40,666 nt of DNA from positions 1-40,666 of IMG/VR virus record IMGVR_UViG_2563366836_000013; one strand, given 5' to 3'. The DNA is from a virus. Its lineage: Duplodnaviria > Heunggongvirae > Uroviricota > Caudoviricetes. The translations under genes were made by a program, and so were the position numbers. Below, piece by piece: positions 2,914 through 40,110 of the stretch. Every line of letters starts with the position of its first letter. Within the stretch, counting starts at the first letter, position 1. The notes beneath the pieces were generated by a model. It had not been told where the DNA came from. It did no database searches and saw only the letters and a list, made by a program, of their open reading frames with translations.

Positions 2914-3027
2914 CGCAAAGTCTCCGCAATTACACGCAAGAAAAAGCCGCATTGATGCGGCGATGGTAGGTCTGGATATCATTGAGCAATGAACAGGCCT
3001 CATCGAGTGTGAGGCTGTATGGCTCCA

Positions 3028-3333
3028 TTATTTCACCTCTTGCTGTGTCATTGTTGAAAAATGGATACCAGCTCGTTGCTGCCAGACGATCCAACCGAGA
3101 GTCATATCCCATGCCATGTATTCGTTATCGCCGTTTTTTGCTCTCCGACGATCTACTAAGTCACCGAAACGCTTTTCCATGAATAATTCATAGGCTTCGC
3201 GTTCATCTGGCTCTACTTCCAGAGATACGAGTGCGATTTCATAAGCACGGCGCTCAATATCGTCTCGAACCTCTAGGCTGCTGATTCGTTCTTTGATTTC
3301 TTTAATCAGTTCTTTATTGGTAAATGTGGTCAT
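3028..3333 (-). CDS. Hypothetical early protein (YfdT-like position)
   Basis: 101-aa ORF, acidic helical protein, stop/start coupled with the upstream gene; same order as the CPS-53 yfdP-T cluster. Confidence 0.5.
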   Translation of the reverse strand: MTTFTNKELIKEIKERISSLEVRDDIERRAYEIALVSLEVEPDEREAYELFMEKRFGDLVDRRRAKNGDNEYMAWDMTLGWIVWQQRAGIHFSTMTQQEVK

Positions 3334-3695
3334 TATGCTCCAGCCTCCGGTGCTTTTGGCATTACTGCCCAGTGAGTGATATTGACGTTTTCAAGGTCCC
3401 CGACCTGAAATATCCACTGCCATTCTCCGGTTTCTTTTTGTCCCCAGGTGTACCAGAGAGAACGCCAGCCAATCAGCCAGCCTTCTCCATTAGCATCAAA
3501 TAACAGAACACTTTCATTTGCTGGTGGCAGTTCAGCTGACACTGGTATTATTTTGTTTTCCAGTGCCGCACATTTAGCTTCAAGCGCGTCGAATTTACGT
3601 ACCAGGTACTCAGCATTTGTTTCGTTCACTTTCAGATCTCGCGGTACACATTTCCCGCGAAGAAACCCTTCCATTTCGAAAACATTCATGCGCAT
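3333..3695 (-). CDS. DUF551-like protein (YfdS-like)
   Basis: 120 aa; C-terminal PVSAELPP ... THWAVMPKAPE resembles the DUF551 signature; packed between neighbours. Confidence 0.55.
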   Translation of the reverse strand: MRMNVFEMEGFLRGKCVPRDLKVNETNAEYLVRKFDALEAKCAALENKIIPVSAELPPANESVLLFDANGEGWLIGWRSLWYTWGQKETGEWQWIFQVGDLENVNITHWAVMPKAPEAGA

Positions 3696-4222
3696 TTGCG
3701 TAACTCCGATAAATCGTTAAAACGTTCCATAAACATCCCGTAGGCATGACCCGGTGCCAGTGGAATCACGTTGAACATCTCTGTTGCCGGGATGCCTTCC
3801 AGTACAGGCCAGAAAGAGCCATCATCAAGCCCGAGATCGCGGCGTTCGGTTGCCAGCATGATGAGATCGGCATATTTCACGGGTGTACTCATAACTGGGG
3901 GTAACTCGTATTTCTCACGGATTACGGCGTCTATTTTTTCTTCCATCCGTTTATAGTCAGGAAGAAGGCGTTTCAGTGGTGCGGGAATGTCCTGGCAATA
4001 CGCTTCTGTTGCATCATGCATTAACGCTTCAAAAGCAAATTCCTGCGGCACCAGCTGGCTGCAAAGAACCGCATGTTGGGCGACGCTGTAGAAGTGCGAA
4101 AGATGACCGGCAAAGCGACAGATATTTGAAAGGGAAACCGCGATATCGTTAATATCGATGTCGTCTTTATTTATCTTGTCATAATAAAAATGCTTCCCGG
4201 AAAAAGTTTTAATAAATGACAT
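3686..4222 (-). CDS. HD-domain phosphohydrolase (YfdR-like 5'-deoxynucleotidase family)
   Basis: Contains H..HD..D metal-binding pattern (HLSHFYSVAQHAV ... MHDATEAY); start set at internal ATG (MSFIKTF) with GGAG 8 nt upstream rather than the GTG of the ORF track. Confidence 0.75.
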   Translation of the reverse strand: MSFIKTFSGKHFYYDKINKDDIDINDIAVSLSNICRFAGHLSHFYSVAQHAVLCSQLVPQEFAFEALMHDATEAYCQDIPAPLKRLLPDYKRMEEKIDAVIREKYELPPVMSTPVKYADLIMLATERRDLGLDDGSFWPVLEGIPATEMFNVIPLAPGHAYGMFMERFNDLSELRKCA

Positions 4223-4349
4223 TTTGTTCTCCACGTATATGCACTGCACCGCGCTGAATTCTGGTAAAAGGAAGCCCTCACCATCCGGTGATTATTGAGT
4301 TAATTACGTTTCCATAAATGCCCCCGCAGGGGCATTTGCAGTAATGAAA

Positions 4350-5174
4350 TCAGGCGGTGAAAGTACCAATAAAGGTTTCTACTTTGCTGTCTTTGAATTT
4401 CTCAACAAGCAGATCACGAAATTCGTTAGCCATTTCTTCCTGCACCGCTTCCAGCTGAATAATGCGCAGAACCAGTACAGGACGATCGCCAGTGATAATG
4501 CTGAGGCGTAATTTAAACGGACGTTCTTTCAGACCTTCAAACGGAACGCATTTAAATTCAAATGCCACTGGCATAATGTCTTTGGTCTTCGCTTCGACAG
4601 ACTCCATCAGGGAGCGTTTGCCGCTGAAGTCATTATCTTCAAAATCAGCGGTCTGGTTTGCTTCAATCGTGATTTTACGGACTGCCGCAGCCGCTTTTGT
4701 TGCTTGAATGGCGTCACCATTAGCATCAAAGCCCACAAGGTAGTCGGCCCAGTCTTCGATCCATTCTGCCAGTGACTTCTGGGAGTTACGCTCGCCGTTA
4801 ACAGACAACAGAGCAGAGAACGGTGCTGTCTTTTTCAGTTTGAGAGTGGCAGTGTTATCTGCGTGACCTGGCTCATCAATAGTACCCAGGTTAAGCACAC
4901 TGACGGCACGCATATTATCGGCATCGATAAAGCAGCGGGTGCCTTCATCTGCAAGATCTTTAGAATAACGGGTAAAATCATCGATGCTGGCAGTGGAAAG
5001 TGCACCACGGAAACGGAAGCGATTTAAATTAAATTTTTCCAGATCATGAATGCGGAAATTCTCAGGCAATGCCACAGCATCGGCACCAATCTTACTGATA
5101 ATTTCATTAACACCCTGAGCAGAAATAAGGGCATGGATTTGATTAATTGCGGTTGCGTCTAAGTTCTGAGACAT
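4350..5174 (-). CDS. YfdQ-like protein (DUF2303 family), function unknown
   Basis: 274 aa, same length and gene order as CPS-53 yfdQ; family recalled from memory. Confidence 0.65.
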
Positions 5175-5239
5175 AATAAGTCCTCACTATATAAAGATAT
5201 TCAGTGATGAGATAAATAATCAGTTTATTACGAACGATA

Positions 5240-5602
5240 TTAACGACCTGCTGCGCGGAGTTTTCCGTCAGGTTCACCGGCAAGAGTCAGTAATTGTCCC
5301 TGGTCTTCCTGCAGAATAGTCAGGCGACCACCGCGATTGACATACATCGGCGTTTCGGTGGTGTCTTCTTCGGAAATTTTCCCGCGGTTAGTCGGGCGAA
5401 TATATGAGAGTTTGTGTTTGATTTTCACACGGTTCTCATCAAATGGTTCGATTTCCAGGTTGAGTGAGACCTTACCTTTGGTTTTCGTGTTCATCACACC
5501 GGAAGCGACTTCACTGAGAACTGCGCCGATTTTGGTTTCAAATACGCCGCCGTCCAGCTCCCCGATAAATGCCTGCACATCAGTACTGCGTTCGCTAGCC
5601 AT
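5240..5602 (-). CDS. YfdP-like hypothetical protein (120 aa)
   Basis: Start at ATG (MASERSTDVQAFIGEL...) preceded by AGGAG 8 nt upstream; the longer ORF-track version (to 5920) runs into GC-rich non-coding sequence. Confidence 0.6.
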   Translation of the reverse strand: MASERSTDVQAFIGELDGGVFETKIGAVLSEVASGVMNTKTKGKVSLNLEIEPFDENRVKIKHKLSYIRPTNRGKISEEDTTETPMYVNRGGRLTILQEDQGQLLTLAGEPDGKLRAAGR

Positions 5603-6071
5603 TTTGCTGCTCCTCATCATATCGACCCTGCAAGGCCGATTAGTTTCTCCACAAAACAGAGAAGAACACCTGTGGTGGCCGCCGCCCGGATGGATTGGGT
5701 TATGAGCCCGTCGTCCGGTGATGCTCTTCTCTGTTTTGTAAAAAGGACGGTACCAGCCGGAAGCAAGGGTACAAGCTGGTACCGCCAGGACTACACACAG
5801 CATAAAGTTGTGGTGCCGGGTGCCTCCCGGTGCCTGGCGAAGGTTGCACACCAGGCGGGTGGGTATCCACAGAAGGTCGACTGTCAGCCTCAACCTTAAC
5901 CCGCGTGCGCTGAGCCGCATTCACCACAACGCTAAGGATTCTCTCTGGTTGAAAATACTTAGCTGTTATGTGCCTGCTTTTAGCCACATCAGGCGAGGTG
6001 GACCTGGTTATTCCCCAACAACAAGGATTCGGTTAATCTGGATATCCCCAACAACAATAAGAGTATTCAAT

Positions 6072-6587
6072 GTGATCGCTGAATTAACGGCAGCAATGAC
6101 GGCTATTCGTGAAACAGCCCAGATTGCAAAACTAATGAACGAGGCAAAAACTCAAGCTGAAGTAAATGCGGCTATTGGTGAGCTGAACTCAAAGCTTGCG
6201 TCTATTCAGCGCGAATGCGTGTCTCTCGTTGAACTGGTGGGCTCTTATCAAGAAATAAATGCTTCTCTCAAAGCTAAAATTGCAGAATTCGAAAACTTTG
6301 AGGCTCAGACGGAAGGCTATATCCTTAACCAACTTGAGTCGGGTACTTTTGTATACTCGAAGGAGGTAATCGTGAACGGTGGCAGCATAACCATGCATCT
6401 TTGCCCAAAATGTTTTGGACAAAAGATAGTATCGATACTTCAACCATTCCCGGTTAGCGAAGATGAGCTTTTTCATAAAAGCAGGTGCCTCCACTGTGAA
6501 AATAAGTTTCTGATGAATAAAAATCCGGATTACGTATCGCCTCCATCCATTGAGGAGTTGTCCAGAAAACTTAACGGCAATCTGTAG
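6072..6587 (+). CDS. Orphan coiled-coil / zinc-ribbon protein, unknown function
   Basis: About 171 aa from GTG 6072 (AAGAG upstream; alternative ATG at 6096); N-terminal heptad-like helix, C-terminal CPKC-x24-CLHC; opposite strand to all flanking early-left genes; followed by a hairpin terminator. Confidence 0.5.
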   Translation: MIAELTAAMTAIRETAQIAKLMNEAKTQAEVNAAIGELNSKLASIQRECVSLVELVGSYQEINASLKAKIAEFENFEAQTEGYILNQLESGTFVYSKEVIVNGGSITMHLCPKCFGQKIVSILQPFPVSEDELFHKSRCLHCENKFLMNKNPDYVSPPSIEELSRKLNGNL

Positions 6588-6625
6588 ATTACTACTGTTG
6601 TGGATATCCAGATTGTTAAAGAGCT

Positions 6626-6650
6626 AAGCGTCCTGTAGGGCGCTTTTTTG
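6626..6650 (+). terminator. Rho-independent terminator after the orphan zinc-ribbon gene
   Basis: AAGCGTCC-TGTA-GGGCGCTT stem followed by TTTTG. Confidence 0.55.
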
Positions 6651-6734
6651 TTGCTAACGAATCATCCTGGACTTCATATGCCCCAGGCGGCTACTTCGTG
6701 GGCGTCCTGCCTGTTCGTTATCTATGATATAAAA

Positions 6735-6805
6735 TCTAACTTAACTTAGTTATTATGGCAAGAGAAAACACCAAACTTTTCTTAGTTCGGTGCCTTAGTT
6801 AGAGA
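6735..6805. promoter_or_regulatory. Putative OL operator cluster (repeated CTTAGTT half-sites) / PL region
   Basis: Several copies of ACTTAGTT / CTTAGTT just beyond the 3' end of the repressor gene; same motif recurs in the cI-cro intergenic region. Confidence 0.4.
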
Positions 6806-6814
6806 AGAGAGGCC

Positions 6815-7441
6815 TTAGAGTTCGTATTGAACTCCTTTGACTACACCAATGATAAGGCAATTACCATTGATAGGGATGTTGGGATACCGAGGATTTAATG
6901 GCACTAAAAACTTTTGAGGGCCATCGATGACTAATTTTTTTACTGTAGCTTCGTTTGTTCCATCAAGTCGAGCGATGACTATTTTTCCATGACGAGGTTC
7001 TGCATCTGGATCTACAATCACTGTTGCGCCTTCTGGTATTGTTGGGAGGCCATTAGGGTTAGTCATGGAGTCACCTTTAACCTCTAATGCAAATGAGTTA
7101 TCACCAACCTTTAATGATGTATCTACCCACTTGTCCACTTCACTAAACACTTCTGCTGCCCTGCACTCAGTAAACTGCCCAGCCTGAACCCACGATATTA
7201 CAGGAACTCTGCGCATGTTTGTGACGAGTTTGCCTTCAAACTCAGCACCATAAAGAATGTAATCTATTGACGTATTGAAGAACTTCGCTAATTTCGAAAG
7301 TGCCTCCCCACCAGGGGTATTGATGTCTTTCTCCCAGTACCCCACAGCAACGTCGCTTACTCCACAAAATTTACCCAATTCTTTCTGGGACGTTCTGGTA
7401 ACTCTTCTCAGAGCTTTTATACGCTGACCAACCGTTTCCAT
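6815..7441 (-). CDS. CI-like repressor (XRE HTH N-terminus plus LexA/S24-type autocleavage domain)
   Basis: 208 aa; N-terminal HTH (QKELGKFCGVSDVAVGYWE), C-terminal S24 peptidase-like region (GDSM...K); divergent from the cro-like gene. Confidence 0.9.
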   Translation of the reverse strand: METVGQRIKALRRVTRTSQKELGKFCGVSDVAVGYWEKDINTPGGEALSKLAKFFNTSIDYILYGAEFEGKLVTNMRRVPVISWVQAGQFTECRAAEVFSEVDKWVDTSLKVGDNSFALEVKGDSMTNPNGLPTIPEGATVIVDPDAEPRHGKIVIARLDGTNEATVKKLVIDGPQKFLVPLNPRYPNIPINGNCLIIGVVKGVQYEL

Positions 7442-8669: not shown

Positions 8670-8689
8670 AGGTCGGTCATGAGCACTAA
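8468..8689 (+). CDS. DUF4222-like small protein (possibly the C-terminal part of a frameshifted gene)
   Basis: ...[45 protein letters not shown] is protein-like and recalled as DUF4222-like; frame is open from 8438; GTG start only. Confidence 0.35.
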
Positions 8690-9620
8690 ATTAACCGGCT
8701 ATGTATGGGATGGTTGCGCAGCGTCAGGCATGAAATTATCCAGCGTGGCAATTATGGCCCGCCTGGCTGATTTCAGTAATGACGAAGGTGTGTGCTGGCC
8801 ATCGATTGAAACCATTGCCCGCCAGATTGGCGCGGGGATGAGTACCGTCAGAACGGCTATCGCACGGCTGGAAGCAGAAGGCTGGTTAACGCGTAAGGCG
8901 CGTCGCCAGGGTAACCGCAATGCGTCGAATGTTTATCAGCTTAACGTTGCGAAGCTTCAGGCAGCGGCATTTTCTCAACTGTCAGATTCTGACCCGTCAA
9001 AATCTGACGCATCAAAATCTGACCCGTCAAAATTTGATGCGTCGAAATCTGGCAAAAAAGCGGGTTTTCACCCGTCAGAATCTGGCGGGGATCCGTCAGT
9101 AAAATCAAAACATGATCCGTCAGATAAAAAACCTTCTCGTCCGGACGCTTCGCAACCGGACACGCAGACGGCTGAACAGGATTTTTTAACTCGCCATCCT
9201 GATGCGGTTGTATTCAGCCCTAAAAAGCGCCAGTGGGGAACGCAGGATGATTTGACCTGCGCACAGTGGCTCTGGAAAAAAATCATCGCCCTGTACGAGC
9301 AGGCCGCCGAATGTGACGGCGAGGTGGTTCGTCCCAAAGAACCGAACTGGACAGCCTGGGCAAACGAAATTCGCCTGATGTGTGTGCAGGATGGTCGTAA
9401 TCATAAACAAATCTGCGAGATGTACAGCCGCGTCAGTCGCGATCCGTTCTGGTGCCGTAACGTGCTCAGCCCGTCGAAGCTGCGGGAAAAATGGGATGAG
9501 CTTTCCCTGCGCTTATCGCCGTCCGTCAGCACGTACACCGAAAAACGCGAAGACCCGTACTTCAAATCCAGTTACGACAACGTGGACTACAGCCAGATCC
9601 CGGCAGGATTCAGGGGGTGA
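8679..9620 (+). CDS. Replication initiator (lambda O-like N-terminal HTH, DnaT-like C-terminus) with embedded iterons
   Basis: 313 aa; N-terminal HTH (WPSIETIARQIGAGMSTVRTAIARLEAEGWL); central SDPSKSDASKSDPSKFDASKS repeats encoded by DNA iterons; GAGG RBS. Confidence 0.8.
   Translation: MSTKLTGYVWDGCAASGMKLSSVAIMARLADFSNDEGVCWPSIETIARQIGAGMSTVRTAIARLEAEGWLTRKARRQGNRNASNVYQLNVAKLQAAAFSQLSDSDPSKSDASKSDPSKFDASKSGKKAGFHPSESGGDPSVKSKHDPSDKKPSRPDASQPDTQTAEQDFLTRHPDAVVFSPKKRQWGTQDDLTCAQWLWKKIIALYEQAAECDGEVVRPKEPNWTAWANEIRLMCVQDGRNHKQICEMYSRVSRDPFWCRNVLSPSKLREKWDELSLRLSPSVSTYTEKREDPYFKSSYDNVDYSQIPAGFRG
8981..9131. repeat. Iteron array (probable phage replication origin) inside the initiator gene
   Basis: About 6 direct repeats of CCGTCA(A/G)AATCTGA-like units (tgacccgtcaaaatctgacgcatcaaaatctgacccgtcaaaatttgatgcgtcgaaatctgg ... 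atccgtcagataaaaaacc). Confidence 0.65.
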
Positions 9621-9622
9621 TC

Positions 9623-10111
9623 ATGAGTCTGTTAAATGACGTTCAGAAATTCATTGAAGCCCATCCTGGGTGTACTTCCGGAGACATTGCGGATGCTTTT
9701 GCAGGTTACTCACGGCAGCGCGTTCTGCAGTCTGCAAGCAAGTTACGTCAGAGTGGGCGTGTGGCTCACCGTTGTGAAGGAGATACACGCAGACATTTCC
9801 CGCGCCTGACTGAGAGAGCGCAGGAGCCGGAACCACAACCAGTTCGTGAAACCAGACCTGTGCGCAATTTCTATGTCGGCACTAACGATCCCCGGGTGAT
9901 TTTGTGCCTGACCCGCCAGGCTGAAGAACTGGAGTCAAGGGGCTTATACCGTCGTGCTGCAACCGTGTGGATGGCGGCATTCCGTGAAAGCCACTCCCAG
10001 CCAGAACGAAACAATTTTCTGGCGCGTCGTGAGCGGTGTTTACGGAAAAGCAGCAAGCGCGCTGTATCGGGTGAAGAGTGGTATCTGTCAGGGAATTACG
10101 TGGGGGCTTAA
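9623..10111 (+). CDS. Putative DNA-binding regulator (PerC/ANR-like C-terminal motif)
   Basis: 162 aa from ATG with AGGGGG RBS; motif ...LESRGLYRRAATVWMAAF recalls PerC/ANR family; assignment tentative. Confidence 0.4.
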   Translation: MSLLNDVQKFIEAHPGCTSGDIADAFAGYSRQRVLQSASKLRQSGRVAHRCEGDTRRHFPRLTERAQEPEPQPVRETRPVRNFYVGTNDPRVILCLTRQAEELESRGLYRRAATVWMAAFRESHSQPERNNFLARRERCLRKSSKRAVSGEEWYLSGNYVGA

Positions 10112-14109: not shown

Positions 14110-14134
14110 AACCCGCCGACGAGCGGGTTTTTTG
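14110..14134 (+). terminator. tR'-like rho-independent terminator
   Basis: CCCGC-CGACGA-GCGGG hairpin followed by TTTTTT. Confidence 0.6.
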
Positions 14135-14209
14135 ATATGCGACATAACCTATAACATTTTTTATAAAATAAAATATAATTGCTTTACCATTATCCTGTGA
14201 GTTGAGCAA

Positions 14210-14995
14210 ATGTATATATTTGAATTGACCAAACCTGGCAACTGGCTTGAAAGTGAAGACAAAGAGTGGTCTTGGAAAATAGAACGGCTTTTGGACCATC
14301 TTGAATTTGCATTTTATGAGGCTAATGTTGCATTAAATTTATTTATGCAGCAGCAAAACAATCAAATAGAACAACAAGGGGTTTCGCAATTGCAATGGGA
14401 AAAAGAAATGCAAGAACGAAGAACCATCGAAACACTAGTTCGTGAGGAGTTAGGTTTATCCCCTTTTGAGAATCCTGAAAACATACAATTTGAGGTGGAC
14501 GCGAGGTTTAAACGAGAAAAGTGGAGTTCTGGTGAAATTCCACGTAGCCACAAACATTGTGTGATTTTTATTTATGCAAAATCTTTTCTTTATTCTCTTG
14601 ATACTATTGATAAATTTATAAAGGTTATTTCGAATGAACCTTATGCTCCTGAGTCGATAAAAGCCCTACACGATCAGATAGGTAAAGATTTTCCTGATCT
14701 CAGAGGGGTTAGGAATTCAACTCAACACCTCGAAGATAGGGCTCGAGGGCTTGGCGCAGGGAGAGAACCGAAGCCTTTGAATCTCCAGCCTATAAGTAAT
14801 ACCTTCATAAATGCACCGCAAGGTGCTTTGATATTAAATAATCTGAATGGCACCAAATTCGGGTCAACTATATCTGATGGTCACTATGGTGAAGTGGACA
14901 TTTCACCTGAATCGTTATCAAAAATGCAAAGTATTGTTCAGGGCGTTCTTGACTCGTTTAAGTGGGTTGGTAATCAGCAACACTTACCAAGTTAA
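14210..14995 (+). CDS. AT-rich moron protein with HEPN-like R-N-x3-H motif (candidate Abi/defence RNase)
   Basis: 261 aa; low GC compared with flanks; RNSTQH at residues 168-173 fits the HEPN Rx4-6H signature; own TATAAT -10 (14174-14179) and downstream hairpin terminator. Confidence 0.5.
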   Translation: MYIFELTKPGNWLESEDKEWSWKIERLLDHLEFAFYEANVALNLFMQQQNNQIEQQGVSQLQWEKEMQERRTIETLVREELGLSPFENPENIQFEVDARFKREKWSSGEIPRSHKHCVIFIYAKSFLYSLDTIDKFIKVISNEPYAPESIKALHDQIGKDFPDLRGVRNSTQHLEDRARGLGAGREPKPLNLQPISNTFINAPQGALILNNLNGTKFGSTISDGHYGEVDISPESLSKMQSIVQGVLDSFKWVGNQQHLPS

Positions 14996-36289: not shown

Positions 36290-36694
36290 ATGAATGATGT
36301 CTATGCAGTTGTTGATAATAACGTTGTTATTAATGTCATTATCTGGGACGGAATTTCTGAATGGAAACCAGAGGCTGGTAATTTAGTTCCGTTAAACGGC
36401 GATGCTGGCATCGGTTGGTCATATTCAGACGGAGTATTTACCGCGCCACCTCCCCCAGAACGCTCTCACAACGCGTTAGTTGCGGAGGCTGAGCTGCAGA
36501 AATCAGCACTACTGACCGTAGCAAATAACGCAATAGCACCGCTGCAGGATGCCGTTGATTTGGAAATGGCGACAGACGATGAACAGACGTTACTGCTGGC
36601 GTGGAAAAAATACAGGGTACTGCTGAACCGTGTTGATACCTCAGCGGCACCCGAAATAGAGTGGCCTACGCAACCGGGGGAGCGGGCCAGTTGA
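36290..36694 (+). CDS. Tail fiber assembly protein (Tfa)
   Basis: 134 aa, [21 protein letters not shown] ... APEIEWPT typical Tfa; TAAATG coupling to fiber gene. Confidence 0.8.
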
Positions 36695-36992: not shown

Positions 36993-38468
36993 CTAAAGTG
37001 AATCTATTCCATTTTTCCAAATAAGAACTTTTTTGTCTTGTATTTTATGAGTGCTATCAGGCTGCCCAAACTGTTTTATGGCCTTTTCCTCTTGCTCTAC
37101 ATCATCAGCAATTAAAAAATTAGCTCCTTTTTGGTACCATTCTTTTTTTGATAACCAATTATATGGTGTGAATCTATCACCATACGACTCAAATGGAGCT
37201 ACGTTGATATCACTAAATCCAGCAACAGATGATGCAAACCAAAATGATGCATAACCTCTTTGTAGTTTATTTTTTATTAAGAAATCTCTTAATTCTATTG
37301 TAATATCATTTTTATTAACAATGTTTTTTGTTGTTGCCATCGTTGGCAACGATAACGCAATAACGATTAATGATATTAGTAAATTTGTCTTCACTGGTAA
37401 GGAGAAAGAATTTCTAGCAATCACAATTGACATGAAAATAAACGTTGGGACTATGTATCTAATTGAGAAAAGATTTGTTGGCCTGTCACTTGAAACATAG
37501 GCAATCAACATGACTAATGATGATACAATAAGAACCTGGTCAATAAAATCAATTTCTTTAAATTTAAGAATGTTTTTATAAGATAAAAATAAGAATACAA
37601 AAATGAAAAACACCTTTATCATGGTGAATAATGAGTTAAAGCTACCTATCTCCATTCCAAACGCGTACCCACCAAAAAATTTGAATACGCCCATGATAAC
37701 AAGAGATATGTTGCTTGTTATTTGTTGAAACTCTACTATGTGAGGTTTGGTTATGCCTGGCAGGTTAAATCCACCAAGCTTAATGAATATAAATGATATG
37801 AGCTCAGCAATAAATATAGATGATATAGTGAAAACCAACAATAACAAATCATTAGTATTCAACGAATCTCTTTTCATTAGAGAAGCATACATTCTATATA
37901 TGCAAACAAAAACTATAGGTATTATAAAGGCATATTTAGATATATCATCACTAAAAACAAGCAACGATAACATAAATACATATGGAAAAAGTAATTTTAA
38001 ATCATTTTTCTTTCTGTATCTATCTATTATTAGTATGATCGCCAGCATGTAAATGTACGCACCAATATGTATACATGCTATAAGCATTATACTTGATGAG
38101 AAAACCGTTGGAATTCCAAATACAGAAAGAACAGGCCATAACGATGCCCTGCTTTTAGTATGAGAGATATATAGCGATAGTGTTACTAACATAGACATGA
38201 AAATTCCAGGCACAATATAGTACAGATTTTCATTAAATCCTATTATTTTTATCGCTATAGCATATGGTATTATTTCTGTGAAATAGAATGATACAGTTGA
38301 TAAATCCCACCCACTGAGAAAAATATTTCCTTCAGTAATATCCCTTGCCTCTCTGAATGAAGACATGACATCTGAGTTTGGAATTATGTTTTTAGCAATC
38401 ATTGAGTAAATTATTGATAATACAATAAATGTTGCCAGCCAATATAAAAGCTCAAGCTTCTTGCTCAT
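36993..38468 (-). CDS. GtrC-type serotype-specific O-antigen glucosyltransferase (polytopic membrane protein)
   Basis: 491 aa, very AT-rich, many TM helices, immediately downstream of gtrA-gtrB (ATGA-coupled). Confidence 0.8.
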
Positions 38469-39382
38469 TTTTTACCCTTAAGTACATACTTTGGACGCTG
38501 CTTAACTTCAATGTAAATTCTACCAATATACTCACCGAGCACTCCAATCCCAATTAACTGGATGCCGCCAAGAAATAATATTGATACAAGAATTGAAGGG
38601 TATCCAGGTACATTATTACCAAAAATTAATTTATCAATTATCATCCATGAACCGTATGTAAATGATATACATGCAATAAATAACCCAATATAGGTCCACA
38701 TGCGAAGCGGGAATGTTGAGAAGCTAGTGATCCCTTCCAGCGCCAAGTTCCATAGCTTCCATCCATTGAACTTTGTGCTTCCTGCAACGCGTTCTGCTCG
38801 CGCATATTCTACGACATCGGTTCGACCACCAACCCAGCTCAGCACACCCTTCATAAACAGGTTTCGTTCTGGCATGAGCTTAATGTTTTCTACTACTTCG
38901 CGAGACATGAGCCGGAAGTCGCCAACATTCTCTTCTATCTGAGGGTTGCTGATTTTGTTATGAAGTTTATAGAACCACTCAGCAGATTTACGCTTCAGCC
39001 TGCTGTCAGTGGAGCGGTCAGAGCGTTTAGCCAGAACCATATCTGCACCGGCCTGCCATTTCTCTATCAAGTGAGGAATAACTTCGATAGGGTCTTGCAG
39101 ATCAACGTCAATCGGGATAATTGCCTCCCCGGTAGCATGGTCCAGACCTGCGAACAGGGCGGGTTCTTTGCCGAAGTTACGTGTGAACGACAGCGAAACA
39201 ACAAGCGGGTCGGCAACAGCAAGCTCGTTGATAATTGATTCTGTAGCGTCTTTGCTGCCATCGTTTATGAAGACTATCTCGACTTCATGCTGCTGAAGCC
39301 CTTCAAATTCGCGCACAGTTTTATAAAAAATAGGTATCGTGGCCTCTTCGTTAAAGACCGGAACGACTAAAGAAATTTTCAT
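38465..39382 (-). CDS. gtrB: GtrB bactoprenol glucosyltransferase (GT2 family)
   Basis: 305 aa, [13 protein letters not shown]...FINDGSKD...DVDLQDP GT2 motifs and C-terminal TM helices. Confidence 0.92.
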
Positions 39383-39741
39383 TTCGCATCCCTAAAGACA
39401 ATGAACTTTGAATAGACGAAACCGCACACCAGGCTGATGGCGGAGAAGGTGACAAGAGTTATCATCGGGGGAAGTGCGCATCTATCAGCAGCCCATCCAA
39501 CAGTAGCACTGAGTGTTCCCATGAACCCGACATATAACATGTAGCGCATCGTTGTAGTTGATGCTTTGAATGTGAATTTTGCATTCGCGAAGAAGCTAAA
39601 ACTCACAGCCACAACGAAACCTGCGAAGTTTGCCAGAGCCTGATTGGTATGCGCGGCATAGATACATACACCAAAAACCACCCAGTGTATAAGTGTGTTC
39701 AGCACACCAATCGAGGTGTACCTTGCAAATATATTTAACAT
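39379..39741 (-). CDS. gtrA: GtrA flippase (bactoprenol-linked glucose translocase)
   Basis: 120 aa, four TM helices, GtrA-like; first gene of operon. Confidence 0.9.
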
Positions 39742-39939: not shown

Positions 39940-40110
39940 GCTCTGTCTCAGGTCACTAATACCATCTAAGTAGTTGATTCATAGTGACTGGATATGTTGT
40001 GTTTTGTAGTATCATGCAGTCTATTTTTTAGACTAAATGTATTTTAACGCATTGATATTATTGGCTTTTACTGTTTTGCGTTCAGCTTTTTTATACTAAC
40101 TTGAGCGAAA
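39925..40110. other. Prophage attR (P-O-B'): lambda-like P arm, 15-bp core 40085-40099, host B' arm
   Basis: ...GGTCACTAATACCATCTAAGTAGTTGATTCATAGTGACTG... P-arm-like sequence, core GCTTTTTTATACTAA, then CTTGAGCGAAACGGGAAGG (host B' arm as recalled). Confidence 0.88.

Follow-up and report, generated by a model that had tools for sequence, protein, structure and literature searches.

What does a phage gain from the genes yfdP, yfdQ, yfdR, yfdS and yfdT, which Escherichia coli K-12 carries in its cryptic prophage CPS-53? The question is raised by a stretch of 40,666 nucleotides (nt) of caudoviricete DNA (positions 1 to 40,666 of the IMG/VR virus record IMGVR_UViG_2563366836_000013; hereafter the window, by which the whole of this stretch is meant), in which positions 3028–5602 hold these five genes as a block. 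An earlier inspection of the same DNA from its letters alone (the sequence-only reading) had suggested that YfdR, the HD-domain product of the third gene, could alter nucleotide pools, and that the block might be one of the anti-defence or host-takeover loci of early-left regions. We find instead that the block is the known yfdPQRST module, and we consider it moderately probable that, in lytic development, this module inhibits the initiation of host replication through binding of YfdR to DnaA, helped by YfdQ together with YfdS or YfdT, with YfdR retaining a minor nucleotidase activity.

The genes of the block and the elements within it and at its downstream edge are as follows (aa, amino acids; ORF, open reading frame):

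5240–5602, minus strand: yfdP, 120 aa, the first gene of the block, with an AGGAG Shine-Dalgarno sequence 7 nt upstream.
4350–5174, minus strand: yfdQ, 274 aa, DUF2303.
4316–4337, minus strand: GC-rich hairpin (AAATGCCCC-TGCG-GGGGCATTT) in the yfdQ–yfdR spacer, read from the sequence and lacking a proper T-run.
3686–4222, minus strand: yfdR, 178 aa, HD-domain phosphohydrolase, the DnaA-binding member; a GTG at 4249 merely extends the ORF.
3333–3695, minus strand: yfdS, 120 aa, overlapping yfdR by 10 nt.
3028–3333, minus strand: yfdT, 101 aa, the last of the five genes, its start overlapping the yfdS stop by 1 nt.
2930–3112, minus strand: ypdJ-like ORF, 60 aa, a sixth ORF that crosses the mosaic joint with the lambda-type module.
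2946–2961, minus strand: terminator-like hairpin, GCCGCATCAATGCGGC then TTTTTCTTGC, between the block and xis.

The ORF limits of the block coincide exactly with 3028–5602, and the genes lie on one strand in the order P-Q-R-S-T. Over their full length the products are 97.5% (YfdP), 99.3% (YfdQ), 98.9% (YfdR), 99.2% (YfdS) and 98.0% (YfdT) identical to those of K-12 CPS-53, which confirms the gene order recognized in the sequence-only reading; at the DNA level, a stretch of 2664 bp (window 2958–5621) is 97.7% identical to CPS-53 of E. coli K-12 MG1655, far beyond chance. The spacing, too, is that of K-12. The description of the five genes as tightly coupled holds for yfdR, yfdS and yfdT, which overlap, but not for yfdP and yfdQ, with a gap of 65 nt between them, or for yfdQ and yfdR, which lie 127 nt apart. 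The location of the block in the early-left (pL) operon and its attachment to a lambda int/xis were likewise borne out. The int/xis module is 99.1% identical to that of HK97 and 98.4% identical to that of phage 434, and Pfam recognizes in it the integrase arm-binding and catalytic domains and the Exc family, as befits a lambda-type module.

At the mosaic joint, CPS-53 homology stops at 2958 and HK97-type homology extends to 3015; the HK97 stretch corresponding to the hairpin at 2946–2961 is annotated as a 'terminator'. Residues 1–44 of the ypdJ-like product are 84% identical to K-12 YpdJ and the remainder is lambda-type sequence, this ORF probably being a by-product of recombination. The joint from yfdT to a lambda-type xis is rare: among 5,426 complete E. 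coli genomes there are 6 full-length matches, 4 of them at 100% identity, and lambda Xis was found in none (0/80) of the IMG/VR loci related to the block, that is, the 80 loci with an approximately 100% identical YfdQ. CPS-53 itself also has a ypdJ-like ORF after yfdT, but there torI follows the block and a deletion has removed the immunity and leader region, whereas in the window the lambda/HK97-type xis-int comes after the block, a repressor gene, pL and a full leader come before it, and both att cores are present.

With respect to the function of the module, Noguchi and Katayama (2016; PMC4776307) found that yfdQ-yfdR-yfdS-yfdT, when present in multicopy, suppresses hda-185, an over-initiating allele, with a minimal set of yfdQ plus yfdR plus one of yfdS and yfdT, yfdP being dispensable. 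Inhibition of initiation by the multicopy set extends to wild-type cells and to dnaAcos, seqA, DARS and diaA backgrounds, and extracts inhibited oriC replication in vitro (PMC4776307). Purified YfdR binds DnaA directly, in a manner dependent on Phe46 of domain I, and moderately inhibits DiaA-DnaA and DnaB-DnaA binding; the authors propose a role in a propagative ancestor and point to homologues in SfV (PMC4776307). The statement that the roles of the DUF551 and DUF2303 partners are wholly unknown is therefore out of date, yfdQ and yfdS or yfdT being needed for the inhibition of oriC initiation (PMC4776307). Moreover, given that the set has already been published as blocking DnaA when over-expressed, yfdP-yfdT is an already described, widespread module rather than a new anti-defence system.

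Given the 98.9% identity between the two YfdR proteins, we hypothesize that the window proteins likewise bind DnaA and inhibit oriC. Upon loss of the repressor, transcription from pL would proceed through several leader terminators, read-through probably being helped by a put-like cis-acting RNA, and the block would be expressed. YfdR, with its HD fold and intact metal site, would then bind the Phe46 surface of DnaA domain I in competition with DiaA and DnaB. Together, YfdR, YfdQ and YfdS or YfdT would block initiation at oriC, as shown for the 98–99% identical K-12 proteins in multicopy, and during lytic growth the block would thereby shut off initiation on the host chromosome.

Several observations weigh against this scheme. 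K-12 from which yfdQRST has been deleted shows no initiation phenotype, and the effect could, as the authors concede, be an artefact of over-expression (PMC4776307). YfdQ, YfdS and YfdT were not co-purified with YfdR or DnaA (PMC4776307), so that their contribution is mechanistically unexplained. The effect on DnaA is known from over-expressed K-12 proteins, not from a live phage of the window's type, and two substitutions, V23D and G106E, separate the YfdR of the window from the K-12 protein tested with DnaA. Furthermore, members of the YfdR family occur in phages of Bacillus, Caulobacter, Vibrio and other hosts, where contacts of the E. coli type with DnaA domain I need not apply, so that the HD protein may originally have had an enzymatic role. 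Finally, the put-like assignment of the leader RNA is based on position and partial motif similarity, its thermodynamic folding not being significant.

In outcome, the proposed action of YfdR parallels that of lambda P, Bacillus subtilis SirA and E. coli Dps, in each of which a small DnaA-binding factor blocks initiation at oriC, although none of the three is related to YfdR in sequence or fold. SirA and Dps target domain I of DnaA, as YfdR does (PMC4776307), whereas lambda P binds domain III and is itself a helicase loader; the prophage in the window has no P.

Comparison across phages indicates that the block is composite. Of the 80 related loci, all have YfdP, 76 YfdR, 52 YfdS and 34 YfdT, and the recombination breakpoints coincide with the borders of genes or domains; the block thus consists of a P-Q core, a widespread phage add-on in the form of YfdR, and the swappable accessories yfdS and yfdT. 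It is matched by 152 phage records, including PhiR29_1 (99.7% identity over 3.75 kb), SfIV, SfV, mEp460, cdtI and Stx2c phages, and the 90% cluster of YfdQ has 10,812 member sequences. The early-left operons of SfV, SfIV, mEp460, cdtI, Stx2c phages and PhiR29_1, and more distantly those of ST64B and LLS, have the repressor, leader, yfdP, yfdQ and HD gene as in the window; the genes that follow the HD gene differ in these relatives, where Ea-type, DUF551, DUF262 or DnaQ-like genes replace yfdS and/or yfdT, as do the integration modules. The trio of yfbR-like gene, yfdQ and yfdP has been described as common in lambdoid early-left operons (PMC12315714).

YfdS combines an N-terminal Ea-type module with a C-terminal DUF551-like domain that scores 21.6 bits against DUF551 (PF04448; gathering score 22; profile positions 3–68 of 68); phrog_583 covers its full length, each half being matched by other phrogs as well, and K-12 YfdS is handled as DUF551 in the literature (PMC4776307). 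YfdT matches phrog_660 and yielded no Pfam hit even at an E-value of 10. Although the two are genetically interchangeable, no significant similarity was found between YfdS and YfdT (E 0.31), just a common W-rich patch.

YfdP and YfdQ, by contrast, form the invariant core, an old, always-adjacent phage gene pair. In each of seven diverse phages (LLS, ST64B, ArgO145, Halomonas H4907, Vibrio 34E29.1, Xanthomonas CP2 and Acinetobacter Mystique), yfdQ is directly preceded by a yfdP homologue (7/7; hmmsearch E-values 1e-19 to 3e-67), that of CP2 reaching 99.3% in hhalign. YfdR accompanies the pair solely in the enterobacterial lambdoids among the seven, and in the distant phages the pair is found among SSB, Erf/RecT, exonuclease and DnaQ-like genes. 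YfdQ belongs to DUF2303 (PF10065; 309.7 bits over profile positions 2–269 of 269) and is about 40% identical to the 'YfdQ protein' of PDB 9O7M, a 36-chain entry whose sequence originates from CP2/Usme-type Xanthomonas/Xylella phages; no publication on 9O7M was found in a literature search, and the structure is apparently unpublished. YfdP belongs to PF27127/phrog_204, a precomputed PF27127 hit being present in all 120 listed homologues, including the 98% identical cluster representative. The AlphaFold2 models are moderately confident, with a predicted local distance difference test score of 76.5 for YfdQ and 80.6 for YfdP, the latter folding into one helix and three long strands. Neither model gave a significant fold match in the Foldseek copy of PDB, which does not contain 9O7M, and a BFVD fold search with the YfdQ model returned solely other DUF2303 proteins. 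As a separate observation on gene order, ORF38-ORF37 of Xanthomonas phage CP2 (2639–3892), the yfdP-yfdQ homologues, are followed by a gene for a 511-aa protein, Erf, exonuclease, endonuclease and SSB.

These properties bear on an alternative that we regard as possible though rather unlikely, namely that the block is a replication or recombination accessory, in which a YfdP-YfdQ oligomer acts on DNA or the replisome and, with YfdR, redirects DnaA/DnaB to the phage origin in lambdoids that encode O without a helicase loader (O-only). The constant adjacency of the pair, the company it keeps in distant phages and the 36-chain assembly of the YfdQ homologue are all in line with such a role, as is the fact that YfdR targets exactly the DnaB-contacting surface of DnaA (PMC4776307). 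Window positions 8679–10111 fit the O-only replication class, and no P-like or DnaB-like helicase loader was found in the prophage or in any of the 80 loci (0/80) with what is a small reference set (phiES15 P and HK022 DnaB), which limits the weight of this negative result. A YfdN-type gene, which follows O in the window, is present in 63 of the 80 loci, and an O-type gene was detected in 58. The same O-only backbone occurs in every phage with the P-Q-R trio that was examined (window, ST64B, LLS, mEp460, cdtI and an Stx2c phage), which suggests an association of the trio with O-only replication. Across 314 lambdoid phages, 34 encode O alone, and their replication is experimentally unstudied and not understood (PMC12315714).

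This association is, however, confounded by ancestry, since the early region of all these phages descends as a whole from one lineage. Moreover, ArgO145 has the P-Q pair in addition to a full Rec module, a role as recombinase is deemed unlikely in PMC12315714, the DnaA phenotype does not require yfdP (PMC4776307), and the PDB and BFVD searches revealed no fold similarity to DNA-metabolism proteins. The more specific proposal that YfdP-YfdQ is an ancient oligomeric module that, with YfdR, takes DnaB/DnaA away from oriC to the phage origin in O-only lambdoids we consider improbable; if true, such hijacking by YfdPQ(R) would explain how O-only lambdoid phages replicate.

To the anti-defence or nucleotide-pool role we likewise assign little probability. 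It holds that YfdR, as a phosphohydrolase, depletes or reshapes dNMP/dNTP pools or destroys defence second messengers, with its partners as further counter-defence factors, and it has an early-left position in its favour, such regions agreeing with a role of this kind. It is also consistent with the state of the active site. H50, H69-D70, E73, D78 and D119 of YfdR are invariant or nearly so (at least 90%) among 34 representatives of 38–67% identity, and the H...HD...D metal site of the HD phosphohydrolase superfamily is present; since the HD catalytic residues are conserved across the family, the enzyme is very probably active, and, for the same H...HD...D residues, the outcome named by the sequence-only reading as fatal to its proposal, a catalytically dead HD protein, is unlikely to apply. 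The size and spread of the family, with 22,673 cluster representatives at E-values up to 1e-3 and 333 phage records (tblastn) from hosts including Bacillus, Caulobacter and Vibrio, would fit a host-independent enzymatic role, and PHROG labels YfdR a dNMP phosphatase.

The affiliation and the reported biochemistry of YfdR nevertheless argue against this role. Against the YfbR-like family PF12917 it scores 24.6 bits, below the cut-off of 25.9, and against the YfbR equivalog NF003009 of NCBIfam 20 bits, far below the cut-off of 122, even though RefSeq names the K-12 protein a 5'-deoxynucleotidase; YfdR thus belongs to an HD subfamily separate from the YfbR-type 5'-deoxynucleotidases, its nearest solved relative being Atu1052 (PDB 2GZ4, E 5e-13). 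YfdR and the E. coli 5'-deoxynucleotidase YfbR have the HD fold and the metal site in common, and K-12 YfdR is reported, in the account given by PMC4776307, as a structural homologue of YfbR with nucleotidase activity. According to the results of Zimmerman (2008) as cited there, however, it is a weak dNMP phosphatase whose nucleotide affinities lie well below those of YfbR. Conversely, the DnaA protein-binding role is that of YfdR, none being known for YfbR. In a comparison that took in no anti-defence library, PADLOC gave no meaningful hits on the block, a 12-bit hit to YfdR being noise, our literature search returned nothing on anti-defence for these families, and no link of YfdP, YfdQ, YfdS or YfdT to any defence system was found. 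With these results and the weak affinities reported for YfdR, the role in anti-defence or nucleotide pools put forward by the sequence-only reading is unsupported. Homology of YfdR to T5 Dmp was not supported, there being no T5-like phage among 40 sampled entries or among the most frequent organisms in the 333 records.

Least probable is a benefit to the lysogen, in which low-level prophage expression would aid host survival of oxidative or DNA-damaging stress: multicopy yfdQRST does raise hydroxyurea resistance (PMC4776307), but the phenotypes are weak, the genes are preceded by a pL under repressor control and by two or more terminator-like hairpins, and the upstream region differs in K-12, where homology ends 19 nt before yfdP, so that K-12 expression is not transferable to the window prophage.

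The block itself matters little, since it is widespread and nearly identical to K-12 genes that are annotated and whose phenotype has been published. The value of the prophage is rather as a pointer to what YfdP and YfdQ do and to how O-only lambdoids load helicase. For asking what a phage gains from the inhibition of DnaA by the yfdPQRST module, it is better suited than the cryptic CPS-53, given that it is intact and probably inducible, with a complete operon and its natural promoter and leader. Arguably, more interest attaches to the leader RNAs than to the genes of the block. Read from pL towards yfdP, the region comprises, in this order:

6733–6761, minus strand: candidate pL promoter from a promoter scan, sigma-70-like, TTGCCA, 17-nt spacer, TAGATT.
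6656–6725, minus strand: candidate HK022-put-like RNA, a 70-nt module that opens the pL transcript.
6626–6645 (6645–6626 as read from pL): bidirectional terminator-like hairpin.
6093–6587, plus strand: inserted ORF, 164 aa, phrog_1244, between pL and the leader RNA.
5972–6001 (6001–5972), minus strand: conserved hairpin module, 30 nt.
5737–5960, minus strand: STnc100-like structured RNA, 224 nt.
5784–5748 followed by five Ts, minus strand: clean intrinsic terminator, the 3' end of the STnc100-like RNA.
5603–5739, minus strand: proximal leader, with a long hairpin (5739–5651) of 18-nt arms (5739–5722 and 5668–5651), then the yfdP ribosome-binding site.

The candidate pL overlaps operator-like repeats of the ACTAAGT type, which are found between cI and cro too, and no plausible protein-coding ORF was found on the minus strand between pL and yfdP. 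Across the related loci, the put-like module follows four unrelated promoter/operator types, starting 8–12 nt past the -10 element. It has the motifs CGAAC-GGC and YCARGGAUGA in common with HK022 putL/putR, and its ST64B counterpart displays a compensatory change from CUGG/CCAG to CCGG/CCGG. The put RNA of HK022 occupies exactly this position and renders RNA polymerase resistant to terminators (PMC9378689). Like HK022 putL/putR, the window module is about 70 nt long, stands right after pL in an N-less lambdoid and has terminators downstream, but its interior sequence differs, and it lacks the sigma-pause element NANNAT (+23 to +28) that is conserved in known putLs; a second, putR-like copy was not found in the window. 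The minimum free energy (MFE) fold of the module is not better than those of shuffled sequences (z = -1.67); the same holds for HK022 putL and putR, and the MFE test is therefore uninformative for RNAs of the put class. LLS-type phages, which lack N, have been suggested to use put-like RNA (PMC12315714). We accordingly regard 6656–6725 as a candidate antiterminator RNA of a phage that has no N; on the simplest reading, both the block and xis-int would need processive antitermination, most likely mediated by RNA, to be expressed from pL.

Rfam at gathering thresholds gave zero hits in the whole window. The RNA at 5737–5960 nevertheless aligns with RF02076 over the full length of the model at 42.4 bits (gathering threshold 47, not reached; E 2e-7), and it is best described as a putative divergent relative of STnc100. 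RNAalifold on four diverged STnc100-like copies (window, ST64B, phiES15 and LLS) yielded 35 consensus pairs, compensatory changes occurring at 7 of these, and the E. coli loci exhibit three interchangeable STnc100-like interiors within one closing helix, GUUGUGGUG/CACCACAAC. Ahead of the terminator lies a conserved unpaired stretch, UGCUGUGUGUAGUC, which looks like the seed of a small regulatory RNA. In the Cronobacter phage phiES15, the STnc100-like element precedes a kil-gam operon without yfd genes, which indicates that this RNA belongs to the leader and not to the cargo. Canonical STnc100 is found downstream of stx2AB in Stx2 phages (PMC12370729); in the pR'/Q region of the window, no paralogue of the element was found, an ordinary short terminated transcript being present there. 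The proximal leader, in contrast to what lies upstream, travels with yfdP in all related loci, being conserved up to 5787 in 44 of the 80 loci that differ beyond this point; the 18-nt arms of its hairpin constitute inverted repeat I2 (94% complementary).

The plus-strand ORF 6093–6587 is present in 8 of the 80 related loci. Its product has a helix-rich N-terminal half, possibly a coiled coil, and two CxxC pairs in the C-terminal part, and it was assigned to no family in Pfam, NCBIfam or PADLOC. The gene is a candidate moron or exclusion gene; its position is the slot of rexAB in lambda. It is flanked by 26-nt inverted repeats (6035–6060 and 6589–6614, 85% complementary). An interpretation of the TTGGGGATATCCA-type repeats (6007–6060 and 6589–6614) as OL operators was rejected, the cI-cro region having ACTAAGT-type repeats instead, and they are better described as the 26-nt inverted repeats around the inserted ORF.

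The prophage as a whole is complete-looking, with 38.5 kb bounded by two exact copies (1559–1573 and 40085–40099; zero expected by chance) of the 15-bp sequence GCTTTTTTATACTAA, which we take to be the lambda att core. The left copy adjoins a ybhC-like pectinesterase gene, and the prophage is placed at attB-lambda next to ybhC. Its early genes comprise a cI-like S24 repressor (6815–7441, minus strand), Cro, a CII-like protein and an O-type initiator, followed after O by YfdN/PerC, Dam, RusA, KilA-N, DUF968 and Q; the late genes include those for lysis, terminase and a Mu-like tail, and a gtrA-gtrB-gtr(type) glucosylation cassette at 36993–39741. Neither N nor exo/bet/gam was found in the prophage. 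The K-12 genes yfdO-yfdN-yfdM are what is left of the O-YfdN-Dam arrangement seen in the window, and hence the phage whose decay gave rise to CPS-53 has an intact relative in the window prophage, as Noguchi and Katayama anticipated in pointing to SfV (PMC4776307). The window prophage is that of a phage of SfV/CPS-53 type that acquired a lambda/HK97 integration module.

Two further features were noted outside the early-left region. Directly after the terminator of the short pR' transcript (14113–14135) and before the lysis genes lies a plus-strand ORF, 14210–14995, for a protein of 261 aa, with zero matches in Pfam, NCBIfam and PADLOC, a low GC content (about 37%) and an AT-rich promoter-like sequence of its own. 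This late-region slot is a typical moron position, which in Stx phages holds stx. At 36457–36645 on the plus strand, just upstream of the gtr cassette, a sub-threshold Rfam match to IS009 (48.8 bits against a gathering threshold of 117; E 2.5e-8) overlaps the tail-fibre-assembly gene at 36290–36694.

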